Source: Methanobacteriota archaeon (GTDB lineage Archaea; Thermoplasmatota; Thermoplasmata; SG8-5; JAGLSY01). Taken from it: a DNA stretch of 64,000 nt. Position numbers and translations under genes: made by a program. Within the stretch, counting starts at the first letter, position 1, and each line of letters opens with the position of its first letter. The notes beneath the pieces are model-generated. The model was given only the letters and a program-made list of their open reading frames with translations. It was not told the DNA's origin and ran no database searches. Shown here one piece after another: positions 7,818-30,742 of the stretch. Where the stretch lies: contig JAEHCO010000002.1 of assembly GCA_020697715.1 (NCBI GenBank), positions 32,001 through 96,000 on the forward strand, in the 5' to 3' direction.

Positions 7818-9941
7818 TTACTTGTGTTCTTTGCCCCTCCTTTTTTTATCTTTCAGACCTCTGAATTTCGCGAACATGACAGCCCCTACAATGAATGTAG
7901 TGACTATGAGCAGGACTCCTGGGAATGGCATGGATAGTCCAAGATCTTCCGAATTTTCCACATTATAGTCGTCTGATGTTGAATTTCCAACTCCATCATC
8001 ATCTATATCTACTCCACCATTGGATGGGTATGTGCCGCTCACTGGTGTCGAAGGGTCTATCGCACTTGATGTTGTACTATTGGTGTCTGGAAGGGTCTGA
8101 GATGGGTCGGTATTAGCATCAGCATCAGTATCAATTGGTTGAGCTGTGGTTCCCCAGTCATATATTGTACCGTCTACTGGTATGTAACTGGTCTTGTATA
8201 ATTCATAGGTGGCGAGATCAAGACCTGCGGCTTCCAGAGCATCCTCCAGCTGATCACCAGAGATGAAGGATGTGTAGGGAGTGACAAAGTTGTAGCTCAC
8301 AGCTATTGAGATTATCTCATTAACGGTCTCATTGGTCTCACCCTCTACAGATATCTTATCCAGTAGATGATTGATCCTCGCATAGGCCCAGAATCTGGCC
8401 ACATAATCATTATCCGGGTCAGGATCTGAATGGAATGTTCTGGAATAGGTCATTGCCCCCAAGTCACTCATCGCGCTTATATCCGCTATAACCTCACTGT
8501 TACCCTTAGGGTAAATGCCAGAGACCACGATCTCCGAGCCCTGGAAGAGACTTTTTGTCTCTTTAGGATACCACATACTAGCATCTGGTGAGTATTCGAA
8601 ACTTATATTGCCGAGCATGGTCACGGATATCATGTCATAGAAATCGGTAATCTGGTCAGCTGCATCTGTCCCGAGATATATTTTCAATGCCTCTCCATCA
8701 TTCTCCAGTGAGATGGCCTCTAAAAGATCGAAATCAACATCATCTCCAAATCCAAGACAATATATCTGAGCCCCTATGCTATTTGAATTTATGATCTCCT
8801 GCCTTAGAATATCTGGATCCGTGCTGCCCTGACCATCGGTGAGCAGTACCAATATGGGATTGTCGCTCTCTGCCGATACCAGTTGATCCAAGCCGTCAAC
8901 CATTGCGTTTTTGATATTTGTCCCGCCTCCTGCACCGACACCATTTACGGTCGAGATCGCATCGGTCTTCTCTGTCGTATCTGCTGGAATAAGATCCGAT
9001 CCCAAAGGTTCACTAGTGACTGAATCGAATAGCACTATACCGAAAGAATCGCGAGTATCCAGGGCTGGCAAGATGGCGGAGAAAGCCTCTTTCACCTGTG
9101 CGATCTTATCACCAGTCATCGAACCGCTCTTATCTATACAGAAAGTGATCTGCTTGGGCATGGTATTGCCACCCACATCATCCAGTTCAGGAGAGAAGAT
9201 GTGCATGAAATAACCTGTATTATCGTCCTCGAAGAAGACCATATTCCCCTCATCCGAGGGATTGGCCACTTCATAGTTTATGATTATCATCTTCCCCAGA
9301 AATTCTGGGGCGTCGCTGGCCTTCACAAGAACCTTGCTGATGCTCTCTGTCTCGATAACAGGCTCTTGAAAACCAGATATTGTGACATTGCTGATCTCCT
9401 CCGTATAGTGGATCATGGCCTCAAATTCAAAGGTACCCTGGAAGGTTTCTGGATCAATGATCTGACTGTAATTGTAGAATCCTGTTTTTCGGGGTATGAT
9501 CTCCTCATATCTGAATACCACCTCTGCAGTCTCCCCTGCCTCGAGGTTGAAGCTATGTGTGTAAACAGAATTGCCACGGTACGTCATGTGACTGGCTGTT
9601 ACACCAATTGAGACCTGATAATCATAGGCGGCGGCAGCAATATCTTTCGGTACAACGATCGAATACATCACATCCTCTCCGATGGTCAGTGTAAGATTTG
9701 AAACAAGTGCTCTTTCCGAAATACTATAAGAAAAAGTATGTTCGGCCGCAATATCGCCATTGTTCACGAATCCCTGTGTCACCTCGGTAATGGCATATGA
9801 ATTATGTATTCTCACATCCACTTTGGTATATTCCATCTCTATATTACTGGTCTGATCGTCCTCCAATGCCATAACTGGCAGGACCAGCATCAATCCTAAT
9901 ACAAGCACACACATATTAATCAAAGCTCTTCCATCTGACAT
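7818..9941 (-). CDS. Surface protein with VIT and von Willebrand A domains and C-terminal anchor
   Basis: Signal peptide, VIT-like domain, MIDAS DKSGS, GGGTN, LTDG, FVTPYTS, T/D/S linker, PFPG-TM-basic tail. Confidence 0.9.
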   Translation of the reverse strand: MSDGRALINMCVLVLGLMLVLPVMALEDDQTSNIEMEYTKVDVRIHNSYAITEVTQGFVNNGDIAAEHTFSYSISERALVSNLTLTIGEDVMYSIVVPKDIAAAAYDYQVSIGVTASHMTYRGNSVYTHSFNLEAGETAEVVFRYEEIIPRKTGFYNYSQIIDPETFQGTFEFEAMIHYTEEISNVTISGFQEPVIETESISKVLVKASDAPEFLGKMIIINYEVANPSDEGNMVFFEDDNTGYFMHIFSPELDDVGGNTMPKQITFCIDKSGSMTGDKIAQVKEAFSAILPALDTRDSFGIVLFDSVTSEPLGSDLIPADTTEKTDAISTVNGVGAGGGTNIKNAMVDGLDQLVSAESDNPILVLLTDGQGSTDPDILRQEIINSNSIGAQIYCLGFGDDVDFDLLEAISLENDGEALKIYLGTDAADQITDFYDMISVTMLGNISFEYSPDASMWYPKETKSLFQGSEIVVSGIYPKGNSEVIADISAMSDLGAMTYSRTFHSDPDPDNDYVARFWAYARINHLLDKISVEGETNETVNEIISIAVSYNFVTPYTSFISGDQLEDALEAAGLDLATYELYKTSYIPVDGTIYDWGTTAQPIDTDADANTDPSQTLPDTNSTTSSAIDPSTPVSGTYPSNGGVDIDDDGVGNSTSDDYNVENSEDLGLSMPFPGVLLIVTTFIVGAVMFAKFRGLKDKKRRGKEHK

Positions 9942-18031: not shown

Positions 18032-21000
18032 TTGGGGGAAATGGGAAGCAAAAAAGATGTAATCAATCAATTAACACAGGTTCCTGGCATTGGTCGAGCG
18101 AGAGCTCGGGTCATGTACGATAATGGGATCATGAGCCTGGACGATCTTAGATCCTTCACTGCTTCCGAACTTTCATCCAAGATCTCAAGTATTCCTATAG
18201 ATGCCGCAGAGGAAATTGTGAAATATATCAATGATCTTTTTTCAGATGAGCTGGATGAATTGGGTGAATTATCTGAAGCTGAAGAGGATTTCATATTCAG
18301 TGATACGGAAATAACTTCGATAGATGAAAACGCGATATCCGATCTTGAAGAAGATGTACTTGATGACATTCTTGGAGAGTTCATGGGGGATGATCTCGTT
18401 GAAGATACTGGCATTGACATAAGTGATGACCTGATCGACTCTCTTGATGAGATGATATTTGATGAGAGCGAGGAAAAACCAGACCATCCAATTGGACATG
18501 AAGATATCGATGATGTGATCCTGTCAGAGGAGACCGTGGTCTTCGATCTTGACGGTGATGATATAACCCTCATATTGGAAGAACTGGATGACATTACTGA
18601 TGAAGGTTTAGATGACCAATCGATAAGTGATGTGGATCTTGATCTTGAATCTGATGATAAACCTGATGATGCCCCAATAAGCGAAGGCGATCCAGATATT
18701 CTTCCTGTCAGTGATGATGCCGAGTCTGATGAGGATTATTACGGGGTCGATATCAGTGATGATCTAATGGGTGATCTTGATGATCTGATGGGCGACACAT
18801 CTTCGTCAGAACCCGATCGGGAGTCCGAAGATGTGACAGATGTCCCAGATGAAGAATTCTCAAGTCTCTCTCCTGTAGACGACATTGAAGAAGATGAACT
18901 GACCTCCATTCTGGATGACCTTGATGAATTCCAACTGGATGATGGTGATATCGGAGATGATGAACTATCATTCTCACTTGGCATGGATATCAGCGAGGAT
19001 CTGATAGATGCACTTGATGAGATGATCGAGCCATCTTCAACTGATGAACAAGTTGAAGAGATCGACCCTGCCCCCTCCTCCCCAGATGATGACATATATT
19101 TGATGAAGCCAACCATCTTGGATGAAGAAAGTGATGAGCTGGTAGACCTGCTTGATGACCTGTCTTTAGATTCCCTTGATGAGGATGCACTTGAAGATCA
19201 GGAAGTTCCGATAGATCATATCGTGGAGGCTGATCTTGCAGATGAAGAATTACTGGATATCAGTGATGAGATCTTCAGTGATCTTGATGACCTGTTGAGT
19301 GGTGATGCTCTTGACGATGACGACGATGATGATGACTGGGATCTCGGAACTATTGGAGGGGATTCTGATCCAGGGTTCGATATTACGGAAGATGAAGATA
19401 CCATAGAGGATCTTGAATTGAGTTCCAGTGTGGACGATACTCTTGAAGACGATTTCCAGATATCCGCACCTATTATCACCCATGTGGATGATATTGAAGA
19501 TCTCGATGATGATCTCGCCAAAGACCTTGAAGATCTAAGTGAAGAACTGACCGCGTTCTCAGATCAAGAAGAAGAGCCCAATATCTGCGAACAATGCGGC
19601 GAGACCATTTATGATGATGTGTCCAAATGCCCCTCTTGCCATGATAAGGTCAAAGAAGAGAAAGGCCTGATCAATAGAGGCTTTGTACACGGGGCGATGA
19701 GTGGCCGTGGTCGTGTAACTGGCCTGGTGAATGGCATTGACAAGGTGGAAGGCCGTATCAATGGTATGATCAATGGTACTGGCAAGATCAATGGTATGAT
19801 CAATGGTGTCGGTAGCATCAGTGGAAAGGTCAATGGTCTGGAAGATGGAAAGGCCAGGATAACTGGCAAGATCAATGGAGTAAGAGAATTCGATGGATAT
19901 GTGAACGGCCTTACAAATGGAAAAGGCCGTGTCAATGGCATGGTCAATGGAATGATCAATGGCATGGTCAATGGTCGTGTCAATGGTCTTACAAATGGTA
20001 GGAGGACTGGCCGCGTCAATGGTATGGTCAATGGACAGGGTCGTGTTTACACCACATTCCAGCCAACCATGCCCGAGGTCGGCGTCCCTTCAATAGGTTA
20101 TCCACGAGAGGTCAAGCGAAGGCAATTGCTCAAGAAACTCGTTCTTATGGCATCTGTGATAATGTTGATCTCCACTCTACTGGGGGTGACGTACGACCCT
20201 GCAGGAACCCAGGATGTATTAGATATCCAAATAGATGGAGATTTCGCAGACTGGGATGATTATCAGATAATGACATTCGAAGCAGAGGAAGCGGATTTCA
20301 ATCCCAATGTGGACATTGTCCGATGTGGTGCCGAGGATAATGGAGAAATGTACCTGGCACTGTATCTCGGGGTCAGTGGAAACATGATGGGTGGTGAACC
20401 TGTAGCTTCAAGTGCCCTTCAGGACACGTTCTACATATTCATTGACAGCGACAATAGCGATTCAACAGGCTATAAGATATCTGGCATGGGGGCTGATCAT
20501 ATGCTCATGGTCTCTGGATGGAGTGGAAGAGTATTGTCTTCGGTCCTTCATGACTATGTGCCCCTGAATGATGACCAGTCTCTGGATGATGGTCTGAATT
20601 GGAATTATTTCAGACCCGGCCCTACCATTTATTCTGGTGTGAATGCTGATGAACTGGAAGTGCAGATCGGCTGGGAGCTCTTTGGACTTTATGAACCAGC
20701 TCCTGTGGATATACTGATAACCTCACGCAGTTGGGATGGGTACGAGGACAGTGTGGATCATATAATGAGCATAGAAAAGAGCGCTCTGAAGCTCACCCAG
20801 CAGGGTACAGCACCCGTGACAATAGTGTCCTCAAGCCAACATTTCCTTCAATTGGATGCAATGTCCTTCGGAGGAGACTCCCATACAATAGAGAGCATGA
20901 CGGTGGAACTCGAAGGTACTATGCCTTTGGGAGATGTTCAGAGATGCTTCATTGCCGATGGGAACGGCAATGTCCTATTCGAGACCACGGACATCCAGAA

Positions 21001-23122
21001 TGGAAGGGCAACTATCTCGATGAACCATCAGGTGACAGGAGTCCAAACACTCTATGTAGGAGCGGATATTAGCCTATCCGCCCATCCGGGCAGCACATTG
21101 AGATTGAGACTCGATGATGCTTCCAGTATCCCCGTGAACAGTGGGACCATGACATTGGACACAGACCCTTCAGTATTCTCATATTCCTATATCTGGGTAT
21201 CACCATCCCAGATAACAATGGATGGTGGTTTTTCAGACTGGCATGATGTAGGTGCTGATGCGAATGACGATGCAAGCACAAATGGAAATAATGACATCGA
21301 TGTCAGGAACTTCGCCGCGGCCTATGATGGTAGCCAGCTCGCGGTGTTCATCGATGTGGATGGCCAAATGCTTGGAGGCGAGACCATACCTCATATGAAC
21401 TATGCCCTTGCCAATGTCCCTGACCCCGGGAGCCCGCCAGTTGCTATCATCGTGGACTCGGATCGTGATGGTATACCCGATAGGAATGAATCTGGCTATG
21501 AATTTGATTTTGATAATGACGGTGTCCAAGATTCCTTGGATGATGATGATGATAATGACGGATTAACCGACTATAACAATGGCGGAACAGATGTATGGCT
21601 GAACAATACCATAACCAAGGCATCGGTATATATTGGTCCTCAAGAGGGCACTCTACCAAGGACAACTGGTGATGATGTCACGGAGATATTCATCGATTCG
21701 GATAATGATACAGGTACGGGAATGTCCATTGGTGGTATTGGAGCGGACTGGCTGATGCAAATATCTGGTAAGAACTGCCTTATCACCAATAATTCATTAT
21801 ATGTCTGGATGGAAGCTGCCAATAGGTGGTCCTATTCCCCATCCGACCTTGGTAGCGCGTATATAGATTCAACAAATATGGAATTGTCCATGGATCTTAA
21901 CACGTCCGCTGATATCAGATTGTATTTCAGAACATCGGATTGGTCAGATGGGCACGATACTCCAGATACATATTTTGATACTACAACGCAGAGCATACTT
22001 GGTACGAGAGGAGGCCCTGAATCACCTATTACCTTCGCGACCTGGGATATAGACACTATAGATGGTACCGCATCAGGAGATAATGTTGGTGAATACTGCT
22101 CAGTCGTTCTGGATTCCAGTGGATACCCGCACATCAGCTACTATAACTATACCTCAATGTCCAATGGCGACCTCAAATACGCAAAATGGACAGGAAGTGC
22201 CTGGACCATAGAGACAGTGGACAGCATGAACGATGTCGGCACGTACACTTCCATAGCACTTGATGGAAGTGGCAACCCTCACATTAGCTACTACAATGTG
22301 TCCAGTGGTGATCTGAAACATGCGAAAAGGATCAGCGGATCATGGACCAATGAGACGGTCGATGGGTCAGCTGGTGACAATGTAGGCACTTTCTCCTCGA
22401 TCGGCATTGACAGCAGTGGCAATATCCACATCAGCTATTACAACCAATCTGGTGGTGATCTGAAATATGCCAAGTATTCTGGTAGCAGCTGGAGCATCCA
22501 GACCCTTGATAAGATGAGCAATGTGGGAAAATACACATCACTTGAATTGGATGGAAGTGGCTATCCTCACATCAGCTATTATAATGTGACTGGCCAGGAT
22601 CTCATGTATGCCAAATACAGTGGAAGTGCCTGGAGCAATGAAACTGTGGATTCAGGAACTGAAATGGGCATGTTCTCTTCACTGGCCCTAGATTCCAATG
22701 GTTATGCTCACATAAGCTACATCGGGGATGTCTCATTGAAATATGCCAAGTGGACTGGCAGTAGCTGGAGCATTGCCACCGTGGACAGCGCCTCTATCTG
22801 GCCCCTATATTCGAGCATAGCCCTGGATTCTGATGAATATCCTCATATCGCCTATTCAGACACTGCGATGATGAATTTGAAATATGCTGTGTGGGATGGA
22901 AGCTCATGGAGTACGGAGAACGTAGAATCTGCAATGACGATGACAGAATCGATATTCATTGTCATCGACTCCAGTGACAGCCCAGTAATATATTATGTGG
23001 ATGAATCCGGAGGCTATCTCAAAGAGGCTGAGATATTGAATGCTCCGGAATTCCATTCGATAATACCCATTCTGGTCATGTTATGTGTTCCATTGATACT
23101 GAGAAAAAAGAATATCATTTGA
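18032..23122 (+). CDS. 1696-aa multidomain transmembrane/surface protein
   Basis: HhH (VPGIG), acidic region, CxxC-x10-CxxC, NG repeats, TM, two IDG.F.DW-like domains, DxDxDG repeats, propeller repeats, PEF-TM-RKK tail; start may be ATG 18041. Confidence 0.9.
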   Translation: MGEMGSKKDVINQLTQVPGIGRARARVMYDNGIMSLDDLRSFTASELSSKISSIPIDAAEEIVKYINDLFSDELDELGELSEAEEDFIFSDTEITSIDENAISDLEEDVLDDILGEFMGDDLVEDTGIDISDDLIDSLDEMIFDESEEKPDHPIGHEDIDDVILSEETVVFDLDGDDITLILEELDDITDEGLDDQSISDVDLDLESDDKPDDAPISEGDPDILPVSDDAESDEDYYGVDISDDLMGDLDDLMGDTSSSEPDRESEDVTDVPDEEFSSLSPVDDIEEDELTSILDDLDEFQLDDGDIGDDELSFSLGMDISEDLIDALDEMIEPSSTDEQVEEIDPAPSSPDDDIYLMKPTILDEESDELVDLLDDLSLDSLDEDALEDQEVPIDHIVEADLADEELLDISDEIFSDLDDLLSGDALDDDDDDDDWDLGTIGGDSDPGFDITEDEDTIEDLELSSSVDDTLEDDFQISAPIITHVDDIEDLDDDLAKDLEDLSEELTAFSDQEEEPNICEQCGETIYDDVSKCPSCHDKVKEEKGLINRGFVHGAMSGRGRVTGLVNGIDKVEGRINGMINGTGKINGMINGVGSISGKVNGLEDGKARITGKINGVREFDGYVNGLTNGKGRVNGMVNGMINGMVNGRVNGLTNGRRTGRVNGMVNGQGRVYTTFQPTMPEVGVPSIGYPREVKRRQLLKKLVLMASVIMLISTLLGVTYDPAGTQDVLDIQIDGDFADWDDYQIMTFEAEEADFNPNVDIVRCGAEDNGEMYLALYLGVSGNMMGGEPVASSALQDTFYIFIDSDNSDSTGYKISGMGADHMLMVSGWSGRVLSSVLHDYVPLNDDQSLDDGLNWNYFRPGPTIYSGVNADELEVQIGWELFGLYEPAPVDILITSRSWDGYEDSVDHIMSIEKSALKLTQQGTAPVTIVSSSQHFLQLDAMSFGGDSHTIESMTVELEGTMPLGDVQRCFIADGNGNVLFETTDIQNGRATISMNHQVTGVQTLYVGADISLSAHPGSTLRLRLDDASSIPVNSGTMTLDTDPSVFSYSYIWVSPSQITMDGGFSDWHDVGADANDDASTNGNNDIDVRNFAAAYDGSQLAVFIDVDGQMLGGETIPHMNYALANVPDPGSPPVAIIVDSDRDGIPDRNESGYEFDFDNDGVQDSLDDDDDNDGLTDYNNGGTDVWLNNTITKASVYIGPQEGTLPRTTGDDVTEIFIDSDNDTGTGMSIGGIGADWLMQISGKNCLITNNSLYVWMEAANRWSYSPSDLGSAYIDSTNMELSMDLNTSADIRLYFRTSDWSDGHDTPDTYFDTTTQSILGTRGGPESPITFATWDIDTIDGTASGDNVGEYCSVVLDSSGYPHISYYNYTSMSNGDLKYAKWTGSAWTIETVDSMNDVGTYTSIALDGSGNPHISYYNVSSGDLKHAKRISGSWTNETVDGSAGDNVGTFSSIGIDSSGNIHISYYNQSGGDLKYAKYSGSSWSIQTLDKMSNVGKYTSLELDGSGYPHISYYNVTGQDLMYAKYSGSAWSNETVDSGTEMGMFSSLALDSNGYAHISYIGDVSLKYAKWTGSSWSIATVDSASIWPLYSSIALDSDEYPHIAYSDTAMMNLKYAVWDGSSWSTENVESAMTMTESIFIVIDSSDSPVIYYVDESGGYLKEAEILNAPEFHSIIPILVMLCVPLILRKKNII

Positions 23123-24007: not shown

Positions 24008-24241
24008 ATGGCTGTAGGTTTTGTTCTAATATCCACGGCTCCAGCAAAGGAGCATGAAGTGTACAATGAACTAGTAAAGGTCAAAGAGATAGTCGAACTC
24101 CATCCTTTATTTGGAGAATACGATCTCATTGCCAAGATCCAAGCAGATGATTTCAATGTGCTTGGCCAGGTTGTTGTAGATAGGATAAGGAGCATCCCAG
24201 GAGTCATTGACACCAAGACATTAACCGGAATTAAATTCTGA
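24008..24241 (+). CDS. Lrp/AsnC ligand-binding (RAM) domain protein
   Basis: GEYDLIAKI...IRSIPGVIDTKT; no HTH. Confidence 0.92.
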   Translation: MAVGFVLISTAPAKEHEVYNELVKVKEIVELHPLFGEYDLIAKIQADDFNVLGQVVVDRIRSIPGVIDTKTLTGIKF

Positions 24242-29758: not shown

Positions 29759-30742
29759 ATGTGGATGAAAATTCTGATAGTTGAAGATTATGAGCCATCT
29801 ATAGACAAGCTGGGAGCGATCTTGACCAAGGCAGGTCATAAAGTAATTTCTGCCAAGAATGGAAGTGATGGTCTCGATAAATACCGAAAGGACGTGTATG
29901 ATGTCGTGTTCATGGACTGGACACTCCCCGATATGGATGGAAACAGGCTTGCCAGTGATATGCGTGATACCGACACAATGAGACAGAGGAATTCCTATCT
30001 CATCATGACCACTGGTAGGAATAAAAAGCATGATATGTTGGAGGCCATGGAGGCTGGTATTGATGATTTCATGCTCAAGCCCTATGATAAGGCGGTTGTA
30101 ATATCCAGGTTGACCATTGCCAAGCAGATAATGGATGCCAGGGATGATAAGACAGCCGGAATCCCCGATATCATGGACATATTTGAGAAAGAACATGAGT
30201 TAGTCAGCAGGGTGACTGGCATAATGGAGATGACATTCAATATGCTGGATGAATCACGCCCCATTCCTGAAAAGCTTCTGACATGGTGCACATCCTCCGC
30301 TTTCCTCTTGGACTTCCAGGTCCATGAGAGGAAAGAGGATTTCTATATCGAAAGGTTCATCGAGAGAGCCAAGGAAGAACATGGCAAGACCTCGGAATTG
30401 TTTTCCAGATCGTCAATGGCACAGATAATGAAGGAACATGAGATAATCAAGAAGCTCCTCATAAACATGCAGAAGACCATTAAAGATAGGAATTCTGATG
30501 GGGAATTTGACATCCTGAAATTAAAGAAATTCATTGGCCAGTATGTGGAATTGATAAGATTACACAAGGCTCGTGAGGATGATATATTCTTTCCCTTCAC
30601 TATGAGATACCTAAATCCGGATGACATCAAGTATTTGGAAGATGAATTTCTGAAGATAGACGAGAAGGTGGGCATTGAAAAGATAGATGCCAGGATAAAG
30701 ACACTGGGTCATCTTGAGGACGTCCTCAAGATCGATGTTTGA
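29759..30742 (+). CDS. Response regulator receiver fused to a hemerythrin-like (HHE) domain
   Basis: ILIVED, FMDWTLP, LKP; EH, HERKE, EH, HKAREDDIFFP. Confidence 0.88.
   Translation: MWMKILIVEDYEPSIDKLGAILTKAGHKVISAKNGSDGLDKYRKDVYDVVFMDWTLPDMDGNRLASDMRDTDTMRQRNSYLIMTTGRNKKHDMLEAMEAGIDDFMLKPYDKAVVISRLTIAKQIMDARDDKTAGIPDIMDIFEKEHELVSRVTGIMEMTFNMLDESRPIPEKLLTWCTSSAFLLDFQVHERKEDFYIERFIERAKEEHGKTSELFSRSSMAQIMKEHEIIKKLLINMQKTIKDRNSDGEFDILKLKKFIGQYVELIRLHKAREDDIFFPFTMRYLNPDDIKYLEDEFLKIDEKVGIEKIDARIKTLGHLEDVLKIDV

Follow-up and report, generated by a model that had tools for sequence, protein, structure and literature searches.

Layout of the giant gene and its predicted protein

The window analyzed here, a 64,000-nucleotide stretch of contig JAEHCO010000002.1 from an uncultured Thermoplasmata archaeon, carries a gene for a giant membrane protein (approximately 1,690 residues) whose order of NG (Asn-Gly) repeats, basic cluster, single helix, and IDGxFxDW ectodomain is also that of an unnamed family of giant proteins in Thermoplasmatota. 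The open reading frame (ORF) extends from 18032 to 23122 on the forward strand as a single frame without interruption, and comprises 1696 codons counted from a TTG codon, with the stop at 23120–23122. ATG 18041 is likely the start, rather than TTG 18032, because a ribosome-binding-like site (GAGGTGAT) precedes it and because the homolog P0002 begins with MGSKKD in the alignment. Residue numbering starts at TTG throughout, and all features described within the gene lie on the forward strand.

The predicted cytoplasmic head opens with a helix-hairpin-helix (HhH) domain (residues 5–68; 18044..18235), identified with Pfam and with a profile built from seven HhH sequences. The Pfam model HHH_5 (PF14520) scores 25.8 bits on these residues, with a cut-off of 27; the same model scores 33.5 bits in the ortholog from locus L004, 50.5 and 42.7 in two paralogs, and 53.4 in the homolog from locus L005. 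Among solved (HhH)2 structures, the seven-sequence profile matches domain 5 of Hjm/Hel308 (E 4.8e-13) and the N-terminal extension of archaeal eL32 (2e-12), with further matches to PolX (6e-10), UvrC, Rad51 (1.7e-7), and RadA (3.9e-7). Judged from these matches, this region is a real (HhH)2 domain, with RadA-N as one relative among several; of the "RadA-N/HhH-like domain" in the original prediction, the HhH assignment stands, while RadA-N as best match does not, ranking below Hel308, eL32, and PolX. Scans with Pfam and NCBIfam recovered no ATPase domain after the HhH in this protein, and the RecA-type core of RadA and Rad51 is absent. The first hairpin (PGIGRARAR) is canonical and the second degenerate: in SSIPID the G-h-G signature is lost and acidic residues follow, in all four proteins of the ortholog group, while the paralogs keep GIG. 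The domain as a whole has a net charge of −1. The domain thus resembles those of Hel308/Hjm domain 5, PolX, and the Rad51/RadA N terminus in profile (E 4.8e-13 to 3.9e-7) and in its canonical first hairpin; it differs from them in that no helicase, polymerase, or RecA core follows and in the degeneracy of the second hairpin, which argues mildly against classical two-hairpin DNA binding.

Residues 69–505 (437 amino acids; 18236..19546) form an acidic tract in which 41% of positions are Asp or Glu (181 D+E against 5 K+R), giving a net charge of −176. Within it lie four full DIS(D/E)(D/E)L..LD(E/D)(M/L) motifs, at residues 129, 240, 319, and 409 (18416–18463, 18749–18796, 18986–19033, and 19256–19303), and partial ones at 187 and 450; the motif residues are invariant in all three aligned proteins. 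A zinc ribbon of the form CxxC-x10-CxxC follows (C519, C522, C533, and C536; 19586..19639), for which Pfam scores are sub-threshold (DZR, 14.3 bits) and the cysteines are invariant among relatives. A zinc-finger anti-sigma-like reading of this element was dropped, as no family match was obtained and a sigma-factor context is foreign to archaea.

Between the zinc ribbon and the membrane lies the best-conserved part of the protein, an NG-repeat segment (residues 544–675; 19661..20056) with 17 NG dipeptides in residues 545–675 and a net charge of +13. Its identity is 95% to P0002 and 80% to P0003, a second homolog; corresponding values elsewhere are 75% and 44% for the HhH domain, 58% and 37% for the acidic tract, and 42–73% for the ectodomains. 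The giant gene and its neighbors were compared with the syntenic locus L003, the source of P0002, by the Nei-Gojobori method; synonymous sites are near saturation, so the ratios of nonsynonymous to synonymous substitution (dN/dS) are rough. The NG segment has a dN of 0.030, a proportion of synonymous differences (pS) of 0.48, and a dN/dS of 0.04, comparable to the housekeeping neighbors (dN 0.028–0.032, pS 0.28–0.62, dN/dS 0.02–0.09), whereas the other domains of the giant gene range over dN 0.15–0.34, pS 0.51–0.77, and dN/dS 0.11–0.24. Outside the NG segment, the gene evolves 6–11 times faster than its housekeeping neighbors. Even with rough ratios, the NG segment is under strong protein-level constraint, equal to that on housekeeping proteins, and is therefore a functional element; low complexity alone does not account for this constraint, and neither does recent gene conversion.

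AlphaFold2 (AF2) modeling of the segment from zinc ribbon to helix, from four sequences only, returned a mean predicted local distance difference test score (pLDDT) of 56.8. Residues 555–625 (pLDDT 77–87) are modeled as six antiparallel strands in a beta-hairpin array with NG or DG at the turns, residues 629–691 have a pLDDT of approximately 30, and a helix is predicted at 692–716. A look-up of residues 506–725 in the ESM Atlas returned nothing usable. In the L004 ortholog, seven tandem LTNG units are inserted in this segment (L004:1855–2577), and P0003 lacks 16 residues there; the number of NG repeats is thus variable in these two proteins, although the flanking NG sequence is nearly invariant.

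Hydropathy identifies only two hydrophobic segments in the protein, at approximately residues 698–722 and 1668–1696; with none before residue 698, no N-terminal Sec or Tat signal peptide was evident by this measure. The first segment contains a predicted signal-anchor helix (703–721), placed directly after a basic cluster, KRRQLLKK (695–702; cluster and helix together at 20114..20194), on the basis of hydropathy, charge, and the AF2 model. Six K/R occur in residues 695–702, as opposed to no K/R and six D/E in residues 721–740, and 11 N-X-S/T sequons lie in residues 723–1665 with one in residues 1–697. Direct reading found no obvious small-x-small cleavage motif after the helix, here or in the paralogs. 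Because of the charge asymmetry, the sequon count, and the lack of an obvious cleavage motif, the helix would fit an uncleaved N-in signal anchor. The N-in/C-out topology of the original prediction, with approximately 700 cytoplasmic residues, likewise agrees with the charge asymmetry, the sequons, and the lectin-like folds of the outer part.

The outer part begins with two beta sandwiches. AF2 modeling of residues 723–1335 with a 34-row family alignment gave a pLDDT of 87.3 and a predicted TM-score (pTM) of 0.80, and structural comparison with VIA places ectodomain 1 (residues 728–917; 20213..20782), which begins IDGDFADW, among CBM9/DOMON-like sandwiches. Model residues 6–195 resemble CBM9 of Thermotoga maritima Xyn10A (1i82; Z 10.5, root-mean-square deviation [rmsd] 3.6, 148 aligned, 16% identity, with model residues 8–195 in the match). 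Glucodextranase (C-domain, 1ulv; Z 10.2), ethylbenzene dehydrogenase (gamma subunit, 2ivf_C; Z 10.4), and a putative carbohydrate-binding protein from Bacteroides (4jpq; Z 10.5) match as well; the DOMON-like sandwich 7b04_C scores lower (Z 9.3). The family profile also matches 1i82 by sequence, weakly (E 0.0088). Across the four higher-scoring structures the shared fold extends over 148–169 aligned residues; identity to CBM9/DOMON structures is at most 16%, and the domain here is membrane-proximal in a receptor-like protein rather than attached to a glycoside hydrolase. Ectodomain 2 (residues 919–1057; 20786..21202) is an Ig-like sandwich, by AF2 and VIA, that resembles the N-terminal carbohydrate-binding domain of gut-bacterial sialidases: model residues 197–335 match the N-terminal domain of a gut-microbial sialidase (6mnj) at Z 11.7, rmsd 2.8, and 127 aligned residues, followed by sialidase 8gn6 (Z 9.9) and cohesins (Z approximately 7.5). 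This domain, between the two IDGxFxDW domains, had been overlooked in the original prediction.

Ectodomain 3 (residues 1058–1325; 21203..22006), assigned by motif and AF2, is the second IDGxFxDW sandwich, the motif occurring at residues 734 and 1063. Motif search located three DxDxDG motifs in an inserted loop region of this domain (residues 1142, 1159, and 1172; 21455–21571), where the AF2 model is loop-rich and pLDDT dips; the whole-protein scan reported no Pfam match for these repeats, which are of the calcium-binding, thrombospondin type 3-like pattern. Foldseek on the whole 613-residue model gave only low TM-scores (0.1–0.2), to sialidases, integrins, and antibodies. Seven blades of approximately 47 residues follow (residues 1331–1665; 22022..23026), by repeat count, and presumably form a 7-bladed beta propeller. 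DUF7253 scores 23.3 bits on this region, with a cut-off of 25.1, and a phmmer search against solved structures gave no match at E ≤ 1. The elements read earlier from the letters of this stretch (a D/E-rich region with four DIS(D/E)(D/E) repeats, a zinc ribbon, NG repeats, RRQLLKK plus a transmembrane helix, two IDG.F.DW-like beta domains, DxDxDG Ca-type repeats, and about seven blades) were thus recovered by the present analysis.

At the C terminus is a PEF-CTERM-type tail (23042..23119) of the form APEF-HSIIPILVMLCVPLIL-RKKNII, with PEF at residues 1672–1674; it has the tripartite pattern of PEF motif, hydrophobic helix, and basic cluster at the very end. Such a tail is present in 95 of 152 family proteins, 80 of which read PEF. 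NCBIfam rows to FliH and Firmicu-CTERM were rejected as low-complexity matches far below their cut-offs. The genome encodes two archaeosortase-family ORFs, one of them ArtA (120 bits; cut-off 75) and the other ArtC-like (L001:826–2070), with a generic exo/archaeosortase signature at 55.8 bits against a cut-off of 23. ArtA, the archaeosortase system that has been studied, acts on Sec or Tat substrates, which lose the tail helix and receive a lipid (PMC6098224). By analogy, the second anchor of the protein is probably a lipid, since a PEF-CTERM-type signal is normally cut off and lipid-replaced. The earlier description of a doubly anchored protein ending in PEF-TM-RKK consequently holds for the sequence elements, while the C-terminal "TM" is better regarded as a sorting signal than as an anchor.

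A family of giant inside-outside proteins

When the complete sequence was used as query in a word-indexed search of 5.8 billion proteins, 252 matched at E ≤ 1e-3. Only two share the full plan, P0002 (1454 amino acids, 60% identity) and P0003 (1538 amino acids, 51%). The remaining 250 cover the propeller alone, approximately 20% of the query; propeller homologs include many bacterial and archaeal surface proteins, and many of the 250 carry PF15892 or PF23911. A three-way alignment with P0002 and P0003 retains the HhH domain, the acidic motifs, the four cysteines, the NG segment, the helix, both beta domains, and the PEF tail; the propeller is absent from P0002.

Homologous loci were found in three genome contigs, labeled as metagenome-assembled genomes (MAGs) of Methanobacteriota (L003), Thermoplasmata (L004), and Thermoplasmatota (L005). 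The window is syntenic with L003 and L004. Seven neighbors are 92.5–97.7% identical in L003 (a purM-like gene, an MFS transporter gene, a hexapeptide transferase gene, the gene for a 195-residue membrane protein, a small ORF, purE, and guaA); the giant gene, unlike these, is merely 60% identical. Its L004 ortholog encodes 1309 amino acids without the propeller, with the PEF tail at the end, and the L005 protein joins KaiC, HhH, zinc ribbon, NG segment, transmembrane helix, ectodomain, and PEF tail within one polypeptide. Searching the window's own genome by BLAST with single modules identified four paralogs with equal module order on other contigs, encoding 2919 (C11:211720–220479), 2307 (C31:47445–54368), 1772 (C11:61357–66675), and 1055 amino acids (C30:76761–79928), the last of which has nothing but NG repeats ahead of the helix.

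A full HMMER scan of residues 545–1335 against 1.84 billion cluster representatives extended this set to 747 matches at E ≤ 1e-3, 522 at E ≤ 1e-10, and 189 at E ≤ 1e-30. The best 150 of the 747 were scored by simple regular expressions and small hidden Markov models (HMMs) made from the sequences of this analysis, so that the counts are approximate: a hydrophobic helix lies within 80 residues before the first IDGxFxDW in 109, the head contains at least three NG pairs in 90 and a KaiC-like domain in 34, at least one CxxC..CxxC is present in 82, and an HhH domain in 24. Among 301 genomes sampled from the phylum, 33 have matches to the ectodomain profile, mostly several each; they cover 24 of 138 genera. 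A separate search with the segment from zinc ribbon through NG repeats to helix, over longer proteins, returned 22 proteins at E ≤ 1e-5, the named ones from Thermoplasmata MAGs; among the Pfam domains precomputed for them are HhH, TPR, zinc ribbons, and KaiC/DUF7504, with DUF11 and lamin-tail domains on the outside. Together, these proteins constitute a large, unnamed, lineage-restricted family of giant "inside-outside" proteins, of which the gene studied here is one member. Within that family it is somewhat atypical: its head has the HhH domain only, KaiC is missing in cis, and the propeller has been gained in comparison with the nearest orthologs.

These comparisons bear on whether the fused architecture is genuine. 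Read alone, KRRQLLKK and the hydrophobic stretch after it resemble a signal peptide, and the ORF could represent an assembly chimera, or two genes merged by a sequencing error, in which a cytoplasmic HhH/acidic/zinc protein precedes a secreted protein and the internal helix is the signal peptide of the secreted half. However, the plan recurs in the L003 and L004 orthologs, in P0003 and the L005 protein, and in the four paralogs on other contigs, always with the identical in-frame join; neither a mis-join nor homologs that are always separate genes, the outcomes that the original prediction had set against itself, is what these loci contain. The succession of helix and IDGxFxDW is moreover a rule of the family (109 of the best 150 relatives), and the junction region, in the NG segment, is the best-conserved part of the protein. 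A search for sequencing runs that hold the whole gene listed none, of DNA or of RNA, and the case rests on the homologs. We consider a chimera exceedingly improbable.

The propeller is present in the gene studied here and in P0003, and absent from the syntenic orthologs (L003:8001–12374 and L004:547–4476), in which the third ectodomain is followed almost directly by the PEF tail. A whole module has been gained or lost recently in a gene whose other parts are collinear.

The surroundings of the giant gene consist of archaeal housekeeping genes, including those for L10e, Nop56/58, FKBP26, a purM-like protein, purE, guaA, and aldehyde:ferredoxin oxidoreductase. The gene upstream is divergently oriented, and directly downstream are genes for a 195-residue multi-pass membrane protein, a 77-residue small ORF, and a 110-residue membrane protein. 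The 77-residue ORF (24008–24241, forward strand) is 97.7% identical in L003 and 96.6% in L004; it is a candidate stand-alone Lrp/AsnC ligand-binding (RAM) domain. On the reverse strand at 7818–9941 is a gene for a 707-residue VIT-VWA protein (VIT 64 bits, VWA 59.7 bits); this pairing of domains is more familiar from eukaryotes, in inter-alpha-trypsin inhibitor and in proteins associated with vaults. At 29759–30742 on the forward strand, a response-regulator receiver domain is fused to a C-terminal part that is weakly hemerythrin-like (22.3 bits, below the cut-off).

The KaiC link and competing explanations

Several lines of evidence tie the heads of this family to KaiC-type ATPases. The 2.1-Mb genome contains 31 matches to the KaiC family (PF06745), a very large expansion, as compared with 14–24 in related genomes. 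A KaiC gene together with a winged helix-turn-helix (wHTH) gene, or a KaiC gene alone, lies directly upstream of three of five paralogs in this genome, on the same strand and at a distance of 0.1–1 kb, with the winged-helix gene in between for two of them. In the L005 protein, a KaiC domain (97.5 bits) directly precedes the HhH domain in the same polypeptide. Outside this genome, adjacency was sampled in five hand-picked genomes, of which three share its class and two its phylum, and three of the five are single-contig; there, 4 of 12 family genes have a KaiC match no more than 6 kb away (G096, 1/2; G004, 3/4; G150, 0/4; G055, 0/1; G131, 0/1). Chance adjacency is approximately 5–17% by our estimate, from one KaiC match per approximately 70–260 kb. 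On these counts the link is real, though not universal.

The HhH profile matches 11 places in this genome. One is a 558-residue ORF with a KaiC match and an HhH domain directly after it; another is an HhH-TPR-KaiC protein, L010 (L010:6031–7401, equivalent to G000:C11:486799–488169), with a KaiC score of 140 bits and the Walker A sequence GRAGSMKS. L010 adjoins genes for a GNAT acetyltransferase and the PolD large subunit, with no giant gene beside it. Full-length orthologs of L010 occur in both genomes that carry orthologs of the giant gene (92% identity in the L003 genome and 82% in the L004 genome). In the L005 genome, where KaiC and HhH are already part of the giant protein, the best match to L010 covers only the TPR-KaiC part. 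Across these three genomes, the distribution of L010 gives a hint, and only a hint, of a partner in trans. TPRs, zinc ribbons, and HhH domains are typical adaptor domains. A soluble 1042-residue ORF elsewhere in the genome (G000:C11:841673–844801) combines extended arrays of TPRs with a charged stretch resembling a coiled coil, a pair of zinc ribbons, and, at its C terminus, an HhH domain of this type. The HhH domain appears to be a mobile module among the TPR and zinc-ribbon proteins of this genome.

What is observed is the order of the domains, how that order is conserved, and which folds the outer part resembles. The function that we infer, and hold to be slightly on the probable side, is as follows: the protein may be a surface lectin or adhesin-receptor, anchored by lipid and helix, whose cytoplasmic head serves as a docking scaffold tied to KaiC-type signaling. 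The internal helix 703–721 with its basic cluster would act as an uncleaved signal anchor that exports the C-terminal part of approximately 950 residues, yielding a type II (N-in) surface glycoprotein. On the outside, the two CBM9/DOMON-like sandwiches, the Ig-like sandwich, the Ca-type loops, and the 7-blade propeller would form a putative binding surface for glycan or another surface ligand, and the ArtC-like archaeosortase would cut the PEF-CTERM tail and leave a lipid instead, so that the ectodomain would be held at both ends. On the inside, approximately 700 residues comprising the (HhH)2 domain, the four acidic amphipathic motifs, the zinc ribbon, and the basic, strongly constrained NG-repeat beta structure beside the membrane would make up the putative docking scaffold. 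In relatives, KaiC or inactivated-KaiC domains, TPRs, and arrays of zinc ribbons occupy this part of the head. Given these heads, and given that genes for KaiC and winged-helix regulators often precede those of the relatives, the most likely role of the head is to recruit signaling components of the KaiC ATPase family, which would couple surface binding to the cytoplasm or the reverse. For the gene studied here the partner would act in trans, with L010 as one candidate.

A number of observations weigh against this reading. Pfam finds no KaiC domain in the protein; the scanned part of the window (7818–34452) contains no KaiC or winged-helix gene near the giant gene; and the nearest KaiC match on the contig is approximately 50 kb away. 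The syntenic orthologs have the same housekeeping neighbors. Adjacency to KaiC amounts to 7 of 17 family genes overall in the hand-picked sample, with none of four in G150, and is far from universal; with 14–31 KaiC matches per genome, some adjacency is expected by chance. In the outer part, ectodomain 3 (model residues 352–599) matches only generic Ig-like rows at Z ≤ 8 and DOMON-type rows at Z of approximately 7, and the structural search with VIA gave the NG model only small meander sheets and barrels (Z ≤ 5.6), with no fold match. At the C terminus, TIGR03024 (PEF-CTERM) scores 14.4 bits (E 0.033) on the 50-residue tail, below its cut-off of 23, and the best model for the ArtC-like ORF, ArtC TIGR03762, scores 64.8 against a cut-off of 100. 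The available part of the archaeosortase account describes no substrate with a 700-residue cytoplasmic head (PMC6098224).

Signaling across the envelope was one of several options named in the original prediction. It is favored by the family context, in the form of KaiC fusions and KaiC and winged-helix neighbors, and not by the neighborhood of this particular gene. A tether between DNA and membrane was another: the (HhH)2 domain would hold chromosomal or incoming DNA with no sequence preference, and the acidic tract would be a DNA-mimicking autoinhibitor or a spacer. The profile matches to the DNA-binding (HhH)2 domains of Hel308, PolX, UvrC, and Rad51/RadA, the canonical and basic first hairpin (PGIGRARAR), and the −176 net charge of the acidic tract all agree with such a role, whereas the second hairpin is acidic and without G-h-G in all four proteins of the ortholog group, the domain as a whole is at a net charge of −1, and the HhH domains of relatives adjoin KaiC, TPR, and zinc-ribbon modules of signaling type rather than nucleic-acid enzymes. 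Nor are there DNA-uptake or segregation genes nearby in the scanned part of the window (7818–34452). On balance, we regard a DNA tether as decidedly improbable. The protein could instead be purely structural, an envelope component or adhesin that forms part of a coat or binds polysaccharide, with the head as a passive disordered spacer or membrane stopper and the KaiC neighbors of the paralogs as a coincidence in a KaiC-crowded genome. Lectin-like and Ig-like folds, a propeller of a kind common in surface proteins, the PEF-CTERM-type tail, and evolution at 6–11 times the rate of neighboring genes, typical of exposed proteins, would all be expected of it; the 31 KaiC matches in 2.1 Mb ease chance adjacency, and the gene studied here has no KaiC neighbor. 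Against this stand the purifying selection on the head, which is strongest on the NG segment and also retains the HhH domain, the zinc ligands, and the four acidic motifs, the fusion of KaiC into the head in 34 of the best 150 relatives, and the same-strand placement of KaiC and wHTH genes 0.1–1 kb upstream of three paralogs. A purely structural role is, on these data, a plausible but rather unlikely account.

Related systems and significance

The docking-scaffold receptor that we favor has partial counterparts in known systems. KaiC-like ATPases of archaea have reportedly been described, by Makarova, Galperin and Koonin in mBio in 2017 (8:e01959-17), as "signal transduction hub" modules. The present family resembles such hubs in its fusions of KaiC or inactivated KaiC into the head and in the KaiC and winged-helix genes ahead of its members; the gene studied here differs in having neither a KaiC domain nor a KaiC neighbor. 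The giant part running from NG segment and transmembrane helix through CBM9-like domains to PEF-CTERM is absent from the accessible part of an account citing KaiC hubs (PMC5847659). With archaeosortase (ArtA) substrates, as far as they are covered in the available part of the account (PMC6098224), the protein shares a tripartite C-terminal signal, a large glycosylatable ectodomain, and an archaeosortase gene in the genome. The motif here is PEF, scoring below the TIGR03024 cut-off, and export would proceed by an internal signal anchor behind a head of approximately 700 residues, so that the predicted mature protein is held at both ends; the substrates in that part of the account use an N-terminal Sec or Tat signal peptide.

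A more speculative extension, which we think unlikely though not far-fetched, is that the protein represents an archaeal counterpart of integrin-like two-way adhesion receptors, with a lectin/propeller ectodomain pinned at both ends (by the helix and by an archaeosortase-added lipid), the NG module, and a head that recruits KaiC-family ATPases, here L010 in trans via the HhH domain or the acidic motifs. The NG module would then be a new juxtamembrane element for clustering or transmission. By analogy only, integrin-type receptors likewise cross the membrane once, present a propeller, Ig-like sandwiches, and Ca-type loops on the outer face, and have a docking tail in the cytoplasm; however, there is no homology (Foldseek matches to alpha chains have a TM-score of approximately 0.1), the orientation is opposite (N-in here), and the tail here is far larger.

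Literature searches found no description of such an architecture, in agreement with the statement in the original prediction that no characterized protein has it; the supplements of Makarova et al. 2017 may list such fusions. All of the domain types are known. None of the searched literature has them in this combination, nor does it have the NG module or a protein that retains an N-terminal anchor and also bears an archaeosortase-type tail.

To our knowledge, little is known of how archaea sense surface contact. The occurrence of two-component systems in archaea is patchy, and the role of native signaling hubs has been proposed for KaiC-like ATPases, whose receptors are not known (PMC5847659, citing Makarova et al. 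2017). The family described here, with hundreds of clusters, several copies per genome, and a lectin-like outside joined to heads that carry or neighbor KaiC, provides candidate receptors. The gene studied here suggests that the head can dispense with KaiC in cis yet keep the HhH domain, the acidic motifs, and the NG segment. If archaeosortase-type tails do function on proteins that retain an N-terminal membrane helix, the definition of an archaeosortase substrate would be wider.

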